A stretch of DNA of 34,044 nucleotides, taken from NCBI GenBank assembly GCA_041752275.1, contig JBGSHK010000014.1, positions 1 through 34,044 on the forward strand, given 5' to 3'. Shown piece by piece: positions 7,665 to 15,206 of the stretch. The position numbers were made by a program, and so were the translations under genes. The notes below the pieces were generated by a model. It was not told the DNA's origin. It did not search any database and saw only the letters and a program-made list of their open reading frames with translations. Within the stretch, counting starts at the first letter, position 1; every line of letters starts with the position of its first letter. Origin of the DNA: Minisyncoccia bacterium (GTDB taxonomy: Bacteria; Patescibacteriota; Minisyncoccia; Phycocordibacterales; CAIZLB01).

Positions 7665-7700
7665 AATAATAAAAATCACCCAAATTGAGTGATGTTTATT
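7665..7700 (-). terminator. Intrinsic terminator downstream of the small RNA candidate
   Basis: Minus strand ATCACTCA-ATT-TGGGTGAT (one G-U pair) followed by TTTTATT. Confidence 0.7.
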
Positions 7701-7768
7701 GTGCTCTATTCCCTATCCTTAATTCTTTTTAAGGAAAGCGGCCCATCCGGACTCAGTTCAAGAACACA
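7700..7768 (-). ncRNA. Unidentified ~70-nt structured RNA candidate
   Basis: Closing stem TGTGTTCT/AGAGCACA, hairpins GTCC-GGAT-GGGC and TCCTTAA-AAAGAA-TTAAGGA; upstream TGATATTAT extended -10; terminator directly downstream. Confidence 0.5.
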
Positions 7769-7834
7769 GACTTATATAATATCAATTTTTTTTACTTGTC
7801 AAATATACTTTATTTCTATACTATAAATACAAAG

Positions 7835-8938: not shown

Positions 8939-9329
8939 GGGGATGACCGGATTCGATATATAGATCTTTAACACATATGCGTAACCGAGTACCCTCAAAT
9001 CTCGTTAAACTTTGAGGAACTCTATGTGCTAAAACACAAAAAGCTGTTGCATCCTCTTTTGGATTCAACACTTTCGCCTTTGCTAGAGCGTAAGCTCTCC
9101 CTTAGGTGACATCTTACTTTTATCTACTTTGTGTAAAGGTTAGGGTGTAATATAGCAGAGTAAGGTTAAGGTGGTAATCTTGAACCTCAACCGAGATTAA
9201 AGACAAGTTTATATGATGTTTGGATATGTATTTATAATCATATAAATGAAGTTTGAAAACATATCTATGTTACGTAGATGTATGTGTTATACCTATATAG
9301 ACGAGGGTTCAACTCCCTCCATCTCCACC
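8939..9329 (+). ncRNA. ssrA: tmRNA (one-piece)
   Basis: 5' GGGGATG...GGATTCGA pairs with 3' CATCTCC-ACC including the G3-U70 Ala identity pair; T-arm GAGGG-TTCAACT-CCCTC; tag ORF with stop in AGAGC-GTAA-GCTCT hairpin; smpB nearby. Confidence 0.95.
9028..9093 (+). other. tmRNA tag reading frame AKTQKAVASSFGFNTFAFARA*
   Basis: GCT resume codon after PK1-like region, open to TAA 9091-9093 in a hairpin loop; the exact resume codon is inferred. Confidence 0.7.
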
Positions 9330-9378
9330 GATTAAAATACCAGATATGAAAATTTTCATGTCATGGTATTATTAAAGA

Positions 9379-10065
9379 ATGAAAATTATTCTATATATAG
9401 TAATCGCATTATTTGTGTTTCTTGGAATTAAAATAATATTCGATGCACCAGACAGTTTCACTGAATCTGGAATACAAACTGTTGGTACAGGTCAAGATAT
9501 CGAAAAATTATCTATGGCCGCAATCACACAAGGCAATATATCAATCTGTAAAAACTTCAAGATTGCAGCTATTAATATTCCACAATATGGTGAAAATGAA
9601 ATATTGAATAGATGTGAGGAATCATACAACAAAGCCACAGAAGATAAGACTAATGAGAATATCAGTTTTAGAGCTTACACATTAGTTTCCGGAGCGGGAA
9701 CCTCATACAGCCTACCAAAAAATTGGGGTTCATATGTAAACAGAAATGATTATAGTTGCCTTAATGTTTATAAACCATACCCACTCTACAAAGAGGATAA
9801 TTTGTTTTTGCTAATATGTGCGAAGTCAGAAAAAAGTGTTGAGGATTATATATCCAAAACATCAATTAAAGGCATCGAAAGAAATGTGGTCTCGGGTAGT
9901 ACAACCGTTAAAATATTTGATCTTTCTAACGGCGACAAACAATATGTGACCATAAAAGATGGAAAGTTATATGATTTTCAGTACACATACAAACCCCTTG
10001 TTTATAGTGATTTTGATGAAAAAAGAATATTAGAAATAATTAACCGAATCGAAGTAAAAAAGTAA
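9379..10065 (+). CDS. Membrane-anchored exported hypothetical protein
   Basis: N-terminal hydrophobic helix, two Cys pairs; C-terminal YSLPKNW...KDGKLYDFQY...ILEIINRIE resembles PsbP-like folds (inference). Confidence 0.75.
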   Translation: MKIILYIVIALFVFLGIKIIFDAPDSFTESGIQTVGTGQDIEKLSMAAITQGNISICKNFKIAAINIPQYGENEILNRCEESYNKATEDKTNENISFRAYTLVSGAGTSYSLPKNWGSYVNRNDYSCLNVYKPYPLYKEDNLFLLICAKSEKSVEDYISKTSIKGIERNVVSGSTTVKIFDLSNGDKQYVTIKDGKLYDFQYTYKPLVYSDFDEKRILEIINRIEVKK

Positions 10066-10108
10066 AAACCTCACCAAACTGATTTGATAAATTTGTCCTC
10101 ATCTCCAC
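10065..10108 (+). repeat. att-like repeat, copy 1
   Basis: AAAACCTCACCAAACTGATTTGATAAATTTGTCC + TCATCTCCAC (CATCTCCAC is identical to tmRNA 9320-9328). Confidence 0.85.
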
Positions 10109-10116
10109 TTTTTATG

Positions 10117-10144
10117 AAATAGCCTTGTTTTGCAAGGTTGTTTT
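10117..10144 (+). terminator. Intrinsic terminator just after att-like copy 1
   Basis: AAATAGCCTTG-TTTTG-CAAGGTTGTTTT. Confidence 0.7.
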
Positions 10145-10243
10145 GTGTACTGATCATACTACAGCTTAAATTCATTTTTGTAAGATATCATACTGGTGGT
10201 ATTTTTTTTGGAACAATATGAACTTTTCATATATAATTAAAAT

Positions 10244-11257
10244 ATGGAAAAAACACCTAATAATGATGAAGGACTAGCAAATCCAACAAAACAAAATTTC
10301 GATCATGAAACAGTAAACGAAAAACCTTTTATACCTCTAAATAATTTCAAAATGAGGCTTGAAGAAGAAATTAGTCCTGAAGATAAACCATTGACGTTTG
10401 GTGGATTTAACTTAGAGAGTGCAAAAGAACTATCTGAAGGTCTAGGTGCACTTTATGATAAATCATTAGCTATTTTTAAAAAATACCAACAAGAAGAAAT
10501 ATGGTCAAAAGGTAACAAATTTCACGATACTGATACACCAATATCTGGATATCCAGACAGAATTAGAAGATATATTTATGGACAAAATAGCGGTATAACA
10601 TTTGGTGATTTACATGGAGACATCGAAGTCAAAGAACGTTTCTATGAAAGCATTAGTGAAGCATTTGAATTATTTGCCTGCATTAAATATCTAAAGCCAG
10701 ACTCAATAGTAGCTTTGGTAAATGGTGCAAGTAGACTGGGTGCAATTTGTGAAGCAATGGATTTCAAAGTAAACAAACTATCTATTCATAAAAAAGCTGG
10801 GCTAGAGGCTGAAAAAGGTAGCTACAGACATGAACTTTCTAATGAAATTGACTATATTGGGGGTGAAATAAAACAAGGGTCAAAAGTTTTATTATTAGAA
10901 GACACTTCTAGTTTAGGAGAAGAAAGAACCTATCGAGATGCTAGAAAATGGTTATTAGATCGAGGTGTTAGTGATGCGCCTGTATTTATGCAGAGAATGG
11001 TAAGTTTTAGTAGTTTAATATACCGTCAACAACCTAGTGTGGATGAGCTTATTGATATCCAAAAGCATTTGGACAGTGAACAATGTTTTCTATCTTTATC
11101 TGTATTTAAGCCAAGTAAAACTTCTGATTACTGGAAAAGAACAAAAGGTAAATTAACAAAAGTTATAGAAGAAAGACCTGAATTATATTCTGAGTTTTTT
11201 GGTTTGATTAGAAAATTAGGTCACGAACAAGATATTATAAATACACCTCAAACCTAA
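10244..11257 (+). CDS. Hypothetical protein with a type I phosphoribosyltransferase-like domain
   Basis: KPDSIVALVNGASRLGAICEAM and GSKVLLLEDTSSLG resemble the PRTase cis-peptide loop and PRPP-binding loop. Confidence 0.6.
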   Translation: MEKTPNNDEGLANPTKQNFDHETVNEKPFIPLNNFKMRLEEEISPEDKPLTFGGFNLESAKELSEGLGALYDKSLAIFKKYQQEEIWSKGNKFHDTDTPISGYPDRIRRYIYGQNSGITFGDLHGDIEVKERFYESISEAFELFACIKYLKPDSIVALVNGASRLGAICEAMDFKVNKLSIHKKAGLEAEKGSYRHELSNEIDYIGGEIKQGSKVLLLEDTSSLGEERTYRDARKWLLDRGVSDAPVFMQRMVSFSSLIYRQQPSVDELIDIQKHLDSEQCFLSLSVFKPSKTSDYWKRTKGKLTKVIEERPELYSEFFGLIRKLGHEQDIINTPQT

Positions 11258-11268
11258 CCACAAACTCC

Positions 11269-11312
11269 AAAACCTCACCAAAATGATTTGATAAATTTGT
11301 CCATGTGTCCAC
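11269..11312 (+). repeat. att-like repeat, copy 2
   Basis: AAAACCTCACCAAAATGATTTGATAAATTTGTCC (33/34 identical to copy 1) + ATGTGTCCAC. Confidence 0.85.
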
Positions 11313-11317
11313 AAAAC

Positions 11318-11342
11318 AAAAACAACCCTGAGGGTTGTTTTT
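11318..11342. terminator. Bidirectional intrinsic terminator
   Basis: AAAAACAACCC-TGA-GGGTTGTTTTT. Confidence 0.85.
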
Positions 11343-11429
11343 AGTATTTTAGATTCTAGTATTTACTTAACTTAATTCGTCTGATTTGGTGAAAAAAATT
11401 ATAAATCTTGAAAGAATAATAATATTTTT

Positions 11430-14400
11430 CTACTCCCAAGTTACTGATGTTTCTGGGTGGATGATGAATGATTGACCCTCTGAAGTTATTCCAATATAGT
11501 GCAGATATGCTGAAGATAAGGTTACAGTGTCGGTTCTATCAATCTGTCCAGTTCCTGTAAGATCAAAGATTGTGGTACTTGCTGTCATTCCAGTTAAATC
11601 GTCACTAGACCTAAGTATAATTCGACTTGCATTGTTATATGAAAGTTTTGTTCTTATCATAGATTGTTTACCTGACGGAGCGCCCCTAAAGAGTGTTCGA
11701 CCGTTTGTGTCTCCTGCAGATGTTGTAACAACCACATCGCCATTAGTTTGAACAGCTGGAACACCTTGGGAAAACGAATTTCCTGAACTAAGGAAGAAAG
11801 GTGTTTGTGTCCGAGTTGCGGTCCAAGGACCAAGTGTTGCTCCACCTGCCACAACATTTACATTTGCTGGCATAGAAGAACCGGTGAAGTCATACTCTTT
11901 ATCAGGGTTAGGTCCATTATAATTTTCACCATTTTCCAAAAACGATTGATAACGATCCTGTACCTGCTCTCTTGTCAATTCAACACCATTCCATGCCGCA
12001 ACATTATACGCTCGACCTGACACACCAATGTTACCCAAAGTGGCCGTAGCTCCAGAAAGGAGAGTTGTTGTCTTATTGACACCTGTTCCTCCATTGACAC
12101 GGTTGCCATAAGTCGCCTGATTTAAATTAAGGTTGTAATCCTTAACTTTTTTTCCATTAACATATATCTGCCAATGCCCGATACCATTGTGGGTTACTAA
12201 AATATGTATATCTTTACCTAAGGGTATTGTAACACCTGTATTTAGGTTGTAGTAGTTGATTGACCCTTCAGTACGATCCAAACTTAGATAACTGCTATGA
12301 ATAATTCTTAGTACAGGACCAAGCCATCCATTACTGTCAGGGTCAGTACTATATAGATAAATACCGCCGTTATATGTATTATTTTGTGATGAACGAGTAC
12401 CAGGAGGGGCTGAACCTAGCATAACAAGTGGTATATATCTATCCCCTAAACCATGCTGCGGTCGTCCGAAAAACTCTAATGTACTGGTACCAGAAAGTGC
12501 TGGAAAACTATTGAGTGTTACAGTGCTTCCGTTATTAATTAAACCATTATCGGATACAGATAGATTAAAAGATTCCTCATCTGCAATATTAGTAGTTTTA
12601 TTTTTAAAGGCAAGAATCGCATACTTACGACCCAATACATTGTAGTCTGAATTTGCAAGCCTAACACCATCAGATCGCAAACCACCAATAGCAGAACTCA
12701 CCATATCCGTGGCTCCAAACGGTTTACCTTCACCTTCTGTCATAGTATCAGTAATAAACACATTGTGTTTAGTGTCAGCAGTATTGTCGTTTACACCATC
12801 AAGAATCATTGCTGCATTTGGCTCAAAACCAGTCGAGATAAGACGATTACTGGTTCCGTCACCAATATAGGTCACAAGTTTACTAGTAGGTCCGTCATAA
12901 AAACCAACACCCTCAATACCCTCCCCTAAAGCGGTATTTGAGTTTTGATTTACTGTTACAGCATCAGTAACCGTAACACCGTCATTATCAATAGACATAA
13001 AAGATGTTGTCGCGCCATCTTGGAATTTTCCGGAAACTGCAATGTCTGCATCTTTCCATCGGAAAATTGCCGGACGGCTTGAATCTCGCTTGATGAACAT
13101 TAAATCTGCAGCTCCTTCCGTGAACTTTACACTTCTTGGGTTTATAGCATTTCCAACCCACGAGGATGACTGATCTGAGCCTGAGTAGTTATCGTTGAAA
13201 GCTATCCAGTGATATACAACTCCTGATTTATTAGCATTACCAGTAGATGTAAAACCTGCTCCATCAAATTCTTCCCAGACCTTACCATTTCTAGATCCAA
13301 TAGCATATGCACTTGGTAGGTCTGTTAGGTACTGTGTACGACCATGCCAAACAGTACGATTACGCCACATGATAGGATCTGTATTAGCTGGCATAACAAA
13401 TACCATGCCTGGTTTGAAGGAAGAATCAATATTTTTTGTCAACGTATCGCCAGTACCTATATACGAACCGGTTTCTACAAGCATAGCCACAGCACTTTCA
13501 GCAGTAGTAAATGTCTCGTCACTTGATGTAGCCGTATTCCCTTGTGCATCCACAGACTGTACCCGGAAATGATACGTCGTTCCAGGAGAAAGATCAGTTA
13601 AAGTAATGGAATTACTTGTTACCAGTGCCGCAGAGGTTGAGGCGAGACCGTAAGCAGTGTCTGTACCGTAATCTACCCTTGAGCTAGAAACCTCGTTTGT
13701 AGTCCAAGTAATTGTTACATCAGTATTGCCAGGGGTACCTGAAGAGATAGAAGAAATTACAGGGGCAGTGTTGTCAACTATCACAGTAATAACACTCGAC
13801 GTAGCATAGTTTCCACTTCCATCCCTTGCGACCGCGATAAGAGTATGGGAACCATCTGCAACAGAGGTACTGTCCCAGGTAACACCGTATGGAGAAGTGG
13901 TGTCTTCTGCTCCGATATTTGTATTGGTATCAAGTTTGAACTGTACACCTGAAACTGATACATCATCACTTGCATCCGCAGTAAGAGATACAGAAGATCC
14001 AGAAACTGTGGCATTGTTGAGCGGTGTATCAAGTGAAATAGTTGGTGATACAGTATCAGCAGCAACGGTAAAAGAAATTGTATAATCGTCTGTATTCGTA
14101 TTTGCTGAAGTGTCACGACATTTGACATAGTACACGTAGGAACCACTATTTGAAAGCCCTGAAACTAACGAGGAGTGCGAGGTGTTTCCGGTAGTATTAA
14201 AAACAGTCATAGAGTTGTATGTGGTGTTTGGTGATGTGGAATAGGCACAGGACGCATTCTTGTCAGTTGTAACTGATATAGTAGTGCTTGTACTGTTGAA
14301 TGCTAGTGTACCAGAAGGAGATCCATTGGATAAGACAGGTGGTGTGGATGAGGTAGGTGATGAAGATTGGACAGGTGCTAACACATTTGATTGAGGGGAC

Positions 14401-15206
14401 GGAGCACCTCCACCTCCGAAAGAATAATAAATAGGAAAATTAGCTGTAACTAATTTGTTAGCCATAACATTGTTATCTATTCTCGGAATAATTTGTTCAC
14501 TATTAATATAACTCCTGGTACTAACCTGAAAATTACCAGCTTCATTAAGTGAAATTTTTAATTTGTTGACCTGAAATCTTTTTAGAGCGTTTTGGGTGAG
14601 TGTTCCAAAAAAAGTAGTTTCTTTACCTTTAGATCCAATACCCGTTTCCGCTAAAGGAAAACTATTGTTATTTAAATATTTTTGTAGTTCCTTTACATCA
14701 TTACCTGTCATGCCAAGTTTAAGATCTTTTGTAAATTTAAATTTTACACAACCAAAATAATCTCTAGTAGCTGAGTCAAAAACACCATGAATAGTTGAGA
14801 TATTGTTGGCTTTTTGAAATCTACTAACAGCTGACTGAGTTAAGGTTCCAAAAAAAATAGTTTCTTTACCTTTAGATCCAATACCAGTTTCCGCTAAAGG
14901 AAAACTATTGTTATTTAAATATTTTTGTAACTCCTTTACATCATTACCTGTCATGCCAAGTTTAAGATCTTTTGTAATATCACAAAGTGACGTTGCGGTT
15001 TGCACACTCTCTGCTTGAGTTTGTTTTATTGAATAACCGTAAAAACTGAGTACTAGAAAAAGAAAACAATACGTTGCAATATACAAATTTTGACGTATTG
15101 CTATAAATTTTAAAAAACAATACCTTAATCTTACAAGGAAAACTTTTTGATATTTTTTAAAGACATCATTCTCTATTTTGATTTGTTCTAAAATTTTATT
15201 CTTCAT
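11430..15206 (-). CDS. Large multidomain surface protein: 2x PG-binding, Ig-like/FN3 domains, GxYxGxG repeats, LamG-like domain
   Basis: N-terminal TM; duplicated DLKLGMTGNDVKELQKYLN...FFGTLTQ; DTVSPTISLDTP...WDSTSVADGSHTL (Big); VTITWTTNE...TTYHFRVQSVD (FN3); HILVTHNG...IYVNGKKV (LamG-like). Confidence 0.85.
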   Translation of the reverse strand: MKNKILEQIKIENDVFKKYQKVFLVRLRYCFLKFIAIRQNLYIATYCFLFLVLSFYGYSIKQTQAESVQTATSLCDITKDLKLGMTGNDVKELQKYLNNNSFPLAETGIGSKGKETIFFGTLTQSAVSRFQKANNISTIHGVFDSATRDYFGCVKFKFTKDLKLGMTGNDVKELQKYLNNNSFPLAETGIGSKGKETTFFGTLTQNALKRFQVNKLKISLNEAGNFQVSTRSYINSEQIIPRIDNNVMANKLVTANFPIYYSFGGGGAPSPQSNVLAPVQSSSPTSSTPPVLSNGSPSGTLAFNSTSTTISVTTDKNASCAYSTSPNTTYNSMTVFNTTGNTSHSSLVSGLSNSGSYVYYVKCRDTSANTNTDDYTISFTVAADTVSPTISLDTPLNNATVSGSSVSLTADASDDVSVSGVQFKLDTNTNIGAEDTTSPYGVTWDSTSVADGSHTLIAVARDGSGNYATSSVITVIVDNTAPVISSISSGTPGNTDVTITWTTNEVSSSRVDYGTDTAYGLASTSAALVTSNSITLTDLSPGTTYHFRVQSVDAQGNTATSSDETFTTAESAVAMLVETGSYIGTGDTLTKNIDSSFKPGMVFVMPANTDPIMWRNRTVWHGRTQYLTDLPSAYAIGSRNGKVWEEFDGAGFTSTGNANKSGVVYHWIAFNDNYSGSDQSSSWVGNAINPRSVKFTEGAADLMFIKRDSSRPAIFRWKDADIAVSGKFQDGATTSFMSIDNDGVTVTDAVTVNQNSNTALGEGIEGVGFYDGPTSKLVTYIGDGTSNRLISTGFEPNAAMILDGVNDNTADTKHNVFITDTMTEGEGKPFGATDMVSSAIGGLRSDGVRLANSDYNVLGRKYAILAFKNKTTNIADEESFNLSVSDNGLINNGSTVTLNSFPALSGTSTLEFFGRPQHGLGDRYIPLVMLGSAPPGTRSSQNNTYNGGIYLYSTDPDSNGWLGPVLRIIHSSYLSLDRTEGSINYYNLNTGVTIPLGKDIHILVTHNGIGHWQIYVNGKKVKDYNLNLNQATYGNRVNGGTGVNKTTTLLSGATATLGNIGVSGRAYNVAAWNGVELTREQVQDRYQSFLENGENYNGPNPDKEYDFTGSSMPANVNVVAGGATLGPWTATRTQTPFFLSSGNSFSQGVPAVQTNGDVVVTTSAGDTNGRTLFRGAPSGKQSMIRTKLSYNNASRIILRSSDDLTGMTASTTIFDLTGTGQIDRTDTVTLSSAYLHYIGITSEGQSFIIHPETSVTWE
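14602..14977. repeat. 133-bp direct repeat (14602-14734 and 14845-14977) encoding the two PG-binding domains
   Basis: 4 mismatches in 133 bp by manual alignment; offset 243 bp (in frame). Confidence 0.9.

Follow-up and report, generated by a model that had tools for sequence, protein, structure and literature searches.

What is the DNA that separates the transfer-messenger RNA (tmRNA) gene of a Minisyncoccia bacterium from the sequence that once followed it, and how did it get there? The question is raised by contig JBGSHK010000014.1 (C14), which in its whole length of 34,044 bp is the window of this study and belongs to a genome of 734 kb in 36 contigs with a completeness of 95% (called G000 below). 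A sequence-only reading of the window had proposed that two single-gene units behind tmRNA form an integrase-less, integron-like cassette array, inserted one after another, with the newest next to tmRNA, by a recombinase encoded elsewhere. The anatomy of tmRNA plus two units is confirmed here, and the interpretation is partly supported; namely, we consider it somewhat probable that the units are working or recently working cassettes moved by a large serine recombinase (LSR).

The tmRNA gene is located at 8939-9329 on the plus strand (ARAGORN; Rfam RF00023, 116.6 bits), with smpB and a methyltransferase gene upstream of it in the window. Its 3' bases are ..GGTTCAAC-TCCCTCCATCTCCAC(C), and the boundary of the insertion lies after CCAC, at 9328. 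Behind it, unit 1 (9329-10108, 780 bp) and unit 2 (10109-11312, 1204 bp), both on the plus strand, are each composed of a hairpin, one gene, seen as one long open reading frame (ORF), and the same 34-bp site. In unit 1, the hairpin directly 3' of tmRNA (9336-9370, plus strand; -15.9 kcal/mol, z -5.24 for folding versus shuffles) is followed by ORF1 (9379-10065, plus strand), which encodes 228 aa with a hydrophobic N-terminus, and then by site copy 1 (10065-10108, plus strand; E 1.6e-5 with the model R1 described below), with the form AAAACCTCACCAAACT-GATTTGAT-20 nt ending CATCTCCAC. Unit 2 opens with a hairpin at 10113-10147 (plus strand; -15.8 kcal/mol, z -6.02), contains ORF2 (10244-11257, plus strand, 337 aa), and closes with site copy 2 (11269-11312, plus strand; E 2.2e-6 with R1), which ends GTGTCCAC; both site copies are regarded below as P-type half-sites. 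A third hairpin is found at 11316-11345 (z -3.75), where a terminator-like scan puts the core stem-loop at 11318-11342, and each of the three TCCAC boundaries is hence followed by a hairpin, as had been proposed.

The two sites form a direct repeat of 44 nt (10065-10108 and 11269-11312) with 39 of 44 positions identical, and the 34-bp core differs at only one position (33/34). A match of the 33-mer core, with either no or one mismatch, was reached by none of 100 shuffles, and when all 36 contigs were searched for the 33-mer with up to eight substitutions, these two copies were the only ones found. No recombinase gene is present inside the two-unit array.

Some details of the sequence-only reading did not survive. 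The imperfect palindrome that it saw in the site gives no better a fold than shuffled sequence does (z +0.58 and +1.59). Its statement that the sites do not resemble attC holds, since neither copy folds in the manner of an attC. Also, the partial site CTGATTTGGTGA at 11381-11392 (plus strand) is a chance-level match outside the system; 12 such matches are present in the window, and 8.8 +/- 3.4 are expected. Each gene was supposed to have its own -10 box, and this stands for ORF2 only, which has a scored -35/-10 pair 7 nt 5' of its start (TTGGAA-18-TATAAT, 10208-10237, plus strand; 10/12, a consensus match only), whereas none was scored for ORF1. Promoter-like matches are not enriched in the region, with 14 found and 15.2 expected.

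The locus in relatives

We searched 60 relatives with this region, took the tmRNA loci from 16 genomes within the genus of G000, oriented them on tmRNA, and compared their ORFs all against all. The backbone of the locus is fixed: smpB, sometimes the methyltransferase gene, and tmRNA are on one side, and a large surface-protein gene and three further genes are on the other. The gene content between these flanks varies, and the 34-mer is not repeated across the genome, so that neither of the two outcomes named as refuting the sequence-only reading was observed. The conserved flank comes 41 nt after tmRNA in G015 and G008, 76 nt in G013 and 182 nt in G012, and in the remaining genomes, the interval extends over 0.6 to about 10 kb with different genes. 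In G000, the stretch 11313-11345, an A-rich run with a two-way terminator hairpin, resembles the sequence directly 3' of tmRNA in the empty genomes G015 and G008; we therefore consider it to be the old tmRNA flank (B'), displaced by 1983 bp of inserted DNA.

The units indeed behave as discrete inserts. G003 retains site copy 2 together with the flank (86% identity over window positions 11252-11341), but the site is preceded by a different gene, which encodes 439 aa on the opposite strand. In G001, a tiny ORF is followed by a degenerate copy of the site; four different contents are thus found before near-identical sites (two in G000 and one each in G003 and G001). Furthermore, the ORF1 unit occurs in two places. 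It is homologous from the CCAC boundary to the site in G000, where it is beside tmRNA, and in G005 (L027:6857-7614), where it is 5 kb downstream of tmRNA and exactly between two sites. A hairpin 88% identical to the one at the left end of unit 2 is found at G016:C33:143-192, behind a copy of the tmRNA end and before a different gene. In terms of size, 14 site-bounded intervals measure 450-1886 bp, with the longest ORF covering 41-89% of each, and the tmRNA-proximal intervals in G005, G006 and G062, as well as the proximal interval at the tRNA-Asn locus described below, measure 5-17 kb.

An empty site, with tmRNA joined directly to the sequence behind an insert, had been predicted, and the predicted kind of junction was found in a metagenome. 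Four of the 21 metagenome runs listed were examined (X1-X4), as assembled contigs only. In run X4, a contig of 151 nt contains the last 76 nt of tmRNA (9253-9328) with no differences, followed by 30 nt identical to the sequence after the site in G003. This junction is the empty-site form of the G003 type with the boundary exactly after CCAC, and we take it as supporting evidence, not proof. Run X2 gave short identical pieces of ORF1 and ORF2, and run X3 gave tmRNA only; parts of the locus left uncovered in a run carry no weight either way.

The site family and the tmRNA tail

Repeat searches identified a related 32-nt site in four copies in G005, with a spacing of 758, 724 and 716 bp, and a related site in three copies in G017, with a spacing of 808 and 578 bp. 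When the copies of G000, G005 and G017 are right-aligned at CCAC, their consensus is AAA-N-GRTTYGATAAA-N12-TCCAC. A model built from the sequence of 11 sites (R1) was then run over 50 whole genomes of the family and gave 16 matches at E<=0.01 in 10 of them. Fourteen of the 16 share the strand and contig of tmRNA and lie 0.8-10 kb downstream of it, in arrays of one to four copies (G000 with two, G003 with one, G005 with four, G017 with three, and G006, G028, G035 and G062 with one each), and they include two further genera; the site family is therefore tied to the tmRNA locus. As for the other two matches, the one in G007 is on a contig that opens with a copy of the tmRNA end, and the one in G061 is weak, is 248 kb from tmRNA and looks spurious.

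What the site copies is the tail of tmRNA itself. The tmRNA tail, GGTTCGAT-TCCCTCCATCTCCAC, and the site, GGTTCGAT-AAAAT-CCCTAYCCTGTCCAC, are alike over their whole length, and the variant in G000 is GATTTGAT-AAATT-TGTCC..TCCAC. The sequence-only reading had confined this likeness to the last 10 nt; the boundary that it set after CCAC is exact, but the whole 34-bp site mimics the tmRNA 3' end, with an insertion of 5 nt. Indeed, the T-loop-like motif GRTTYRAY is 20 nt before the CCAC boundary in the nine sites obtained by repeat search (two in G000, four in G005 and three in G017) and 15 nt before it in all nine tmRNAs aligned, and TCCAC alone is strictly common to the site and the tail. The distal copy, which had been described as more decayed, ends in GTGTCCAC not because of decay; in other genomes, members of the site family end in ..TGTCCAC more often than in any other way.

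In large serine integrases, the ZD motif is described as lying 5 bp closer to the centre in attB than in attP (Rutherford et al. 2013, PMC3783163). Since the offset seen here is the same, the left half-site can be read as P-type in the cassette and as B-type in the tmRNA tail, where GRTTYRAY would, by analogy, take the place of the ZD motif. Strand exchange would then most likely occur within or just after the common TCCAC, because sites ending in ..TGTCCAC would otherwise damage the acceptor stem of tmRNA. As a genome-wide statistic over all 35 tRNA and tmRNA genes, the +5 spacing was tried and abandoned; the loose pattern was too noisy, and the counts were flat across spacings and equal to those of the upstream control.

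The 34-mer might instead be a regulatory or 3'-untranslated element, such as an operator or a terminator-associated motif, that is kept by selection for expression. A -35-like TTGACA or TTGACT directly follows some of the sites in G017 and G005, and in G017, G005, G003 and G001 the site comes after a conserved terminator, both of which would suit such a role. The sites are, however, found only behind tmRNA or, in a version specific to tRNA-Asn, only behind tRNA-Asn; their sequence mimics the tail of whichever RNA gene they adjoin, and the boundaries of presence and absence are exactly at the site ends. We thus regard a regulatory element as barely plausible.

Recombinases at tmRNA and tRNA genes

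If the units are moved by recombination, which enzyme moves them? In G006, a protein of 534 aa with Resolvase and Zn_ribbon_recom domains is encoded on the strand opposite to tmRNA, and the 3' end of its gene overlaps the tmRNA 3' end. The island that contains this LSR carries a CBASS pair, SMODS + SAVED (L029:3226-5324), and ends at +7589 in a site whose homology with a more distal cassette site of the same array extends over ~60 nt. Four homologs with at least 40% identity to the G006 LSR were found in the family (two in G024 and one each in G031 and G062), and three of them (G024:C50, G031 and G062) overlap the tmRNA 3' end convergently, as in G006, while G024:C12 is located elsewhere. G062 is also equipped with a site of the G000 type, 8.7 kb downstream of tmRNA. 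The expectation that a recombinase should co-occur with the site is hence borne out for G006 and G062 but not for the other seven of the nine site-bearing genomes. R1 detected no further sites on the LSR islands of G024 and G031. Against NCBIfam, only weak matches to XisF and CcrB were obtained, both below the cut-off, and a single-sequence query of viral contigs gave no relative of the tmRNA-linked LSR. We also noticed a LOOT RNA (RF03000, 66.2 bits; gathering score 46.4) in G024, ~9 kb downstream of tmRNA (L057:10494-10614, minus strand) and on the same contig as the tmRNA-adjacent recombinase.

The enzyme is likely an LSR and not a tyrosine recombinase. Tandem stacking at tRNA and tmRNA genes is reported as typical of tyrosine integrases (PMC4383910; bioRxiv 10.1101/2020.12.28.424599), and a tyrosine integrase, the host Xer system, or a single-strand HUH or IntI-like enzyme could be proposed as the mover, all the more as the units start 3' of the same pentanucleotide and open with a hairpin, which recalls the ends of IS200/IS605. 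Nonetheless, the single tyrosine recombinase of G000 (PF00589, contig C6) scores as Xer, with 230.7 bits on a XerA-type model (cut-off 220) and 126.5 bits on the integron-integrase model (cut-off 265). The Phage_integrase domain was not found by Pfam in 36 distinct ORFs from the variable regions of relatives, neither a Y1 HUH transposase (PF01797) nor an IS110-type transposase is present in G000, the site does not fold, and a 5-bp offset has no role in such mechanisms. A recombinase other than an LSR is accordingly judged very unlikely.

The same design is seen at tRNA genes of G000. At the tRNA-Asn locus (C8:54866-74062, L064), LSR_C8 (573 aa) overlaps the tRNA-Asn 3' end and is part of an island of ~17 kb with ORFs of 1005, 395, 816 and 581 aa and a terminal site at +16949, behind which are three units of 674, 1051 and 450 bp. 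The tRNA-Asn units are bounded by four sites that imitate the tRNA-Asn tail. The distance from the octamer to the end is 15 nt in tRNA-Asn itself, 20 nt in three of the sites and 19 nt in the fourth, so that the spacing is +5 or +4, respectively. DNA of the tRNA-Asn sites recurs behind tRNA-Asn in G010 (at least five segments within 5 kb), G015 and G005, but the LSR part of the island does not recur in these three genomes. The tRNA-Asn locus is thus an independent replicate of the anatomy, with the LSR present in cis. Also, LSR_C15 (489 aa) overlaps the tRNA-Ser 3' end (G000 C15:108167-114930), and because a structured element matching tRNA-Ser is located 6.6 kb downstream of LSR_C15, an island is considered to lie between.

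Islands of this size suggest another origin of the small units. The sites could be the attR ends of full-size LSR islands that were whittled by deletion to one useful gene, in which case the units would be fossil scars and would never have moved singly. Consistent with this, large LSR islands end in the same type of site (G006 and tRNA-Asn, as above), the enzyme is missing from most array-bearing genomes, the source sample exhibits no variation, and degenerate copies of the site exist, namely that in G001 and sites 3 and 4 of G005, with 75% identity to the reference copy. On the other hand, each of the 14 small units still has its hairpins and an intact ORF, and none was seen to contain a piece of a recombinase; both boundaries of the ORF1 unit are the same in two genomes where its neighbours differ, and the junction in the X4 contig is clean after CCAC. 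Furthermore, the two sites of G000 are nearly identical, whereas the G005 counterpart of site 1 matches it at 20 of 34 aligned columns (hand count). Scars of deletion are, in our judgment, rather unlikely, yet deserve to be kept in mind.

Several points weigh against working cassettes moved by an LSR. The tmRNA-linked LSR clade has no match in G000 at E<=1e-20, and the three LSRs of G000 itself either are 22-25% identical to that clade or do not match it; indeed, among the nine genomes with tmRNA-linked sites, only G006 and G062 have a tmRNA-adjacent LSR. Three public scans, of genome, metagenome and viral contigs, gave no member of the site family beyond this bacterial family: the site of the G000 type hit three records among genome contigs, namely L043 and L045 (titled as metagenome-assembled genomes of candidate phyla) and one from Clostridia with unrelated flanks; the six matches among metagenome contigs all had unrelated flanks and no tmRNA; and among viral contigs, one site pattern gave no match and the other gave one chance match. 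The flanks, inspected by eye, contain no convincing inverted right half-site (P') common to all units, and the nine aligned sites other than those from the repeat search were obtained with a pattern of fixed spacing, so that their spacing is not independent evidence. The empty junction is known from one contig of 151 nt with a depth of 5, run X1, the probable source sample, contains a single form of the locus only, and no circle junctions were seen in the assembled contigs of the four runs. Finally, canonical LSRs are described as recombining only attP with attB (PMC3783163), and stacking on an occupied site would therefore need relaxed recognition of the right half.

Even so, working or recently working cassettes remain the explanation that we prefer, and the mechanism would be as follows. 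The units would be miniature integrase-less integrative elements stacked at the extreme 3' end of tmRNA. At the left end of each unit, the terminator hairpin would serve tmRNA or the preceding cassette; at the right end, an attP-type (P) half-site of ~34-45 bp would imitate the tmRNA tail, which is the B half-site, with the T-loop-like motif moved outward by 5 bp. Insertion and loss would be catalysed in trans by a tmRNA-specific LSR. The junction of the tmRNA tail with whatever follows it would work like the attI of an integron, and each P site like an attC. The arrays suggest an enzyme that accepts the tail plus anything as its target. The newest unit would be the one next to tmRNA, and units may still be moving at present. 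That most array-bearing genomes have no tmRNA-linked LSR fits action in trans by visiting islands, and fits fossil scars as well.

A broader proposal, more tentative than the one for this locus, is that LSRs run integron-like gene capture in this group of Patescibacteria. The tail of an RNA gene would be the entry, the cassettes would be single genes with a one-sided mimic of the tail shifted by 5 bp, and junctions of the tail with any following sequence would stay receptive, allowing stacking, shuffling and dropout, while the enzyme would visit on larger defence islands.

Cargo, neighbouring elements and precedents

The two genes carried by the array are close to orphans. ORF1 has no match in Pfam or NCBIfam, and PADLOC gave a single sub-threshold row (PDC-M49B, E 0.0096) with no stretch passing alone; among 5.8 billion proteins, its one relative (225 aa, 53% identity) is encoded in the G005 array. 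ORF2 has no match in Pfam, NCBIfam or PADLOC, and only two relatives were found, with 90% and 41% identity. The Atlas gave weak leads only, including, for ORF2, a Pribosyltran-bearing cluster at rank 4 with a score of 0.88. The AlphaFold model of ORF2 has a mean pLDDT of 57, and Foldseek against the PDB returned no row at E<=0.001 out of 1279, the weak rows being a mixture of aminotransferases and phosphoribosyltransferases; a phosphoribosyltransferase-like fold is accordingly a weak, unconfirmed lead. Across the order, G000 was the only genome matched by either ORF among 301 genomes each, just four of which were from its own family. In G005, a variable stretch (L027:2282-5603) encodes a NERD-domain protein, a weakly PIN_12-like protein and a Shedu protein with SduA_C.

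Another element was noticed behind RNA genes. In relatives, what usually follows tmRNA is a terminator hairpin together with a structured element of ~100 nt, and for the element no Rfam match was found. Its outer helix is formed by the reverse complement of the T-loop region of the adjacent gene paired with a direct copy of that region, and the element further contains a conserved GTACTG, a long hairpin and a hairpin of 5 bp whose loop is GTA; RNAalifold on nine copies gave 31 pairs, 17 of which have compensatory changes. With a covariance model, 1-19 copies were detected in 33 of 40 related genomes. In G000, 10 of the 11 copies are 45-217 nt behind a same-strand tRNA with a matching T-loop, and between the remaining copy and tRNA-Ser lies the LSR_C15 island. 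Two copies are in tandem behind tRNA-Arg, which were exposed by the noisy scan for the +5 spacing. Examples are G000 C15:120164-120480 (L063:665-981), L037:20-120 and L028:1539-1639. In G003, G006 and G062, the insertion point of cassettes and LSR islands is between the RNA gene and this element, which may itself take part in the traffic, for instance by serving as a landing pad or a guide.

Elsewhere in the window, an ORF of 1258 aa (11430-15206, minus strand) has no counterpart in the 16 other loci compared. As it is flanked by the cassette array and by the gene for the conserved surface protein, this ORF may be another insertion; neither border was seen to carry a site. Near smpB and tmRNA, sub-threshold matches to the DUF3800-IX RNA model were found at window positions 7699-7770 (minus strand) in G000 and at L035:3523-3589 (minus strand) in G011, with 27 and 28.8 bits against a gathering score of 36.8. 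In the assembly, the 17 short contigs C20-C36 (1.5-3.7 kb) have a G+C content of 40-60%, compared with ~32% elsewhere, and look like contaminants of the bin.

In integrons and in clusters of attC sites lacking integron-integrases (CALINs), single-gene units with recombination sites on their 3' side are collected at one entry site, and the arrays may be integrase-less. The array of G000 resembles these in its single-gene units, each with a site on its 3' side, stacked at one entry and with no integrase in the array. Membership among the integrons was considered and rejected, with attC folding and IntI as the tests: G000 has no IntI, and its sites neither fold nor contain the R' and R'' boxes of attC. 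Unlike integron cassettes, furthermore, the units have their own hairpins and, in places, promoter-like sequences, and their entry site is the end of an RNA gene.

We judge the closest precedents to be the ssrA islands of Dehalococcoides, with the serine integrase DsiB, and the staphylococcal cassette chromosome (SCC) arrays. The ssrA islands are described as tandem and bounded by tmRNA and copies of its 3' end, with 15 of 31 having no integrase (McMurdie et al. 2011, PMC3146451), and a serine recombinase of 540 aa is encoded on the reverse strand next to attL (PMC3146451). In common with them, the target here is the 3' end of the single-copy tmRNA gene, the tandem units are separated by copies of the tmRNA end, and a reverse-strand serine recombinase of similar length (~540 aa there and 534 aa in G006) abuts tmRNA, albeit not at the G000 locus. 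The ssrA islands, however, extend over many kb and contain operons, whereas the units here are 0.45-1.9 kb with one gene; instead of a direct 20-bp copy of ssrA, there is a diverged mimic with a 5-bp insertion, in which only TCCAC is strictly common; and no second recombinase like DsiA was seen in this different host phylum.

The authors of that study relate the ssrA islands to SCCmec and to cis-mobilizable elements (PMC3146451). Like SCCmec and pseudo-SCC elements at rlmH (CcrAB), the array described here would consist of serine-recombinase elements in tandem at the 3' end of one essential gene (PMC3146451), with some members having no recombinase genes and with short repeated integration-site sequences as bounds; the SCC arrays differ in their protein-coding target, large elements and two cooperating recombinases, and they show no mimicry of an RNA gene. 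The units also share with cis-mobilizable elements, as described in the same paper (PMC3146451), that they are att-flanked and have no recombination genes. In tycheposon islands (bioRxiv 10.1101/2020.12.28.424599), newcomers are reported to push older elements away from the tRNA and partial tRNA copies mark the joints, much as in the arrays here; tycheposons, however, are kb-sized, have tyrosine integrases in 910 of 937 and carry true partial tRNA copies, while the enzyme here would be a serine integrase and the sites are mimics. With the att sites of large serine integrases, as described in PMC3783163, the cassette sites share a distal motif that is 5 bp farther from the crossover in the site of the element, the motif being assigned by analogy; they differ in that no symmetric right half-site was identified, and the canonical enzymes do not act on occupied sites. 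What is new, then, is the single-gene unit, the diverged and 5-bp-shifted mimic in place of a plain duplicate, and a lineage of candidate phyla with serine rather than tyrosine integrases at the ends of tRNA and tmRNA genes.

If the proposed scheme is true, there would be a family of serine integrases that tolerates occupied sites and uses one-sided att sites, which would be of interest for integrase engineering, and the 5-bp rule would provide a simple sequence test for such sites beside any tRNA gene. In relatives, the genes nearby include some with a role in defence, namely those of CBASS, Shedu and NERD. If the units are working cassettes, these genomes of ~0.7 Mb with few mobile elements would gain a compact route for trading single genes at the ends of their RNA genes.

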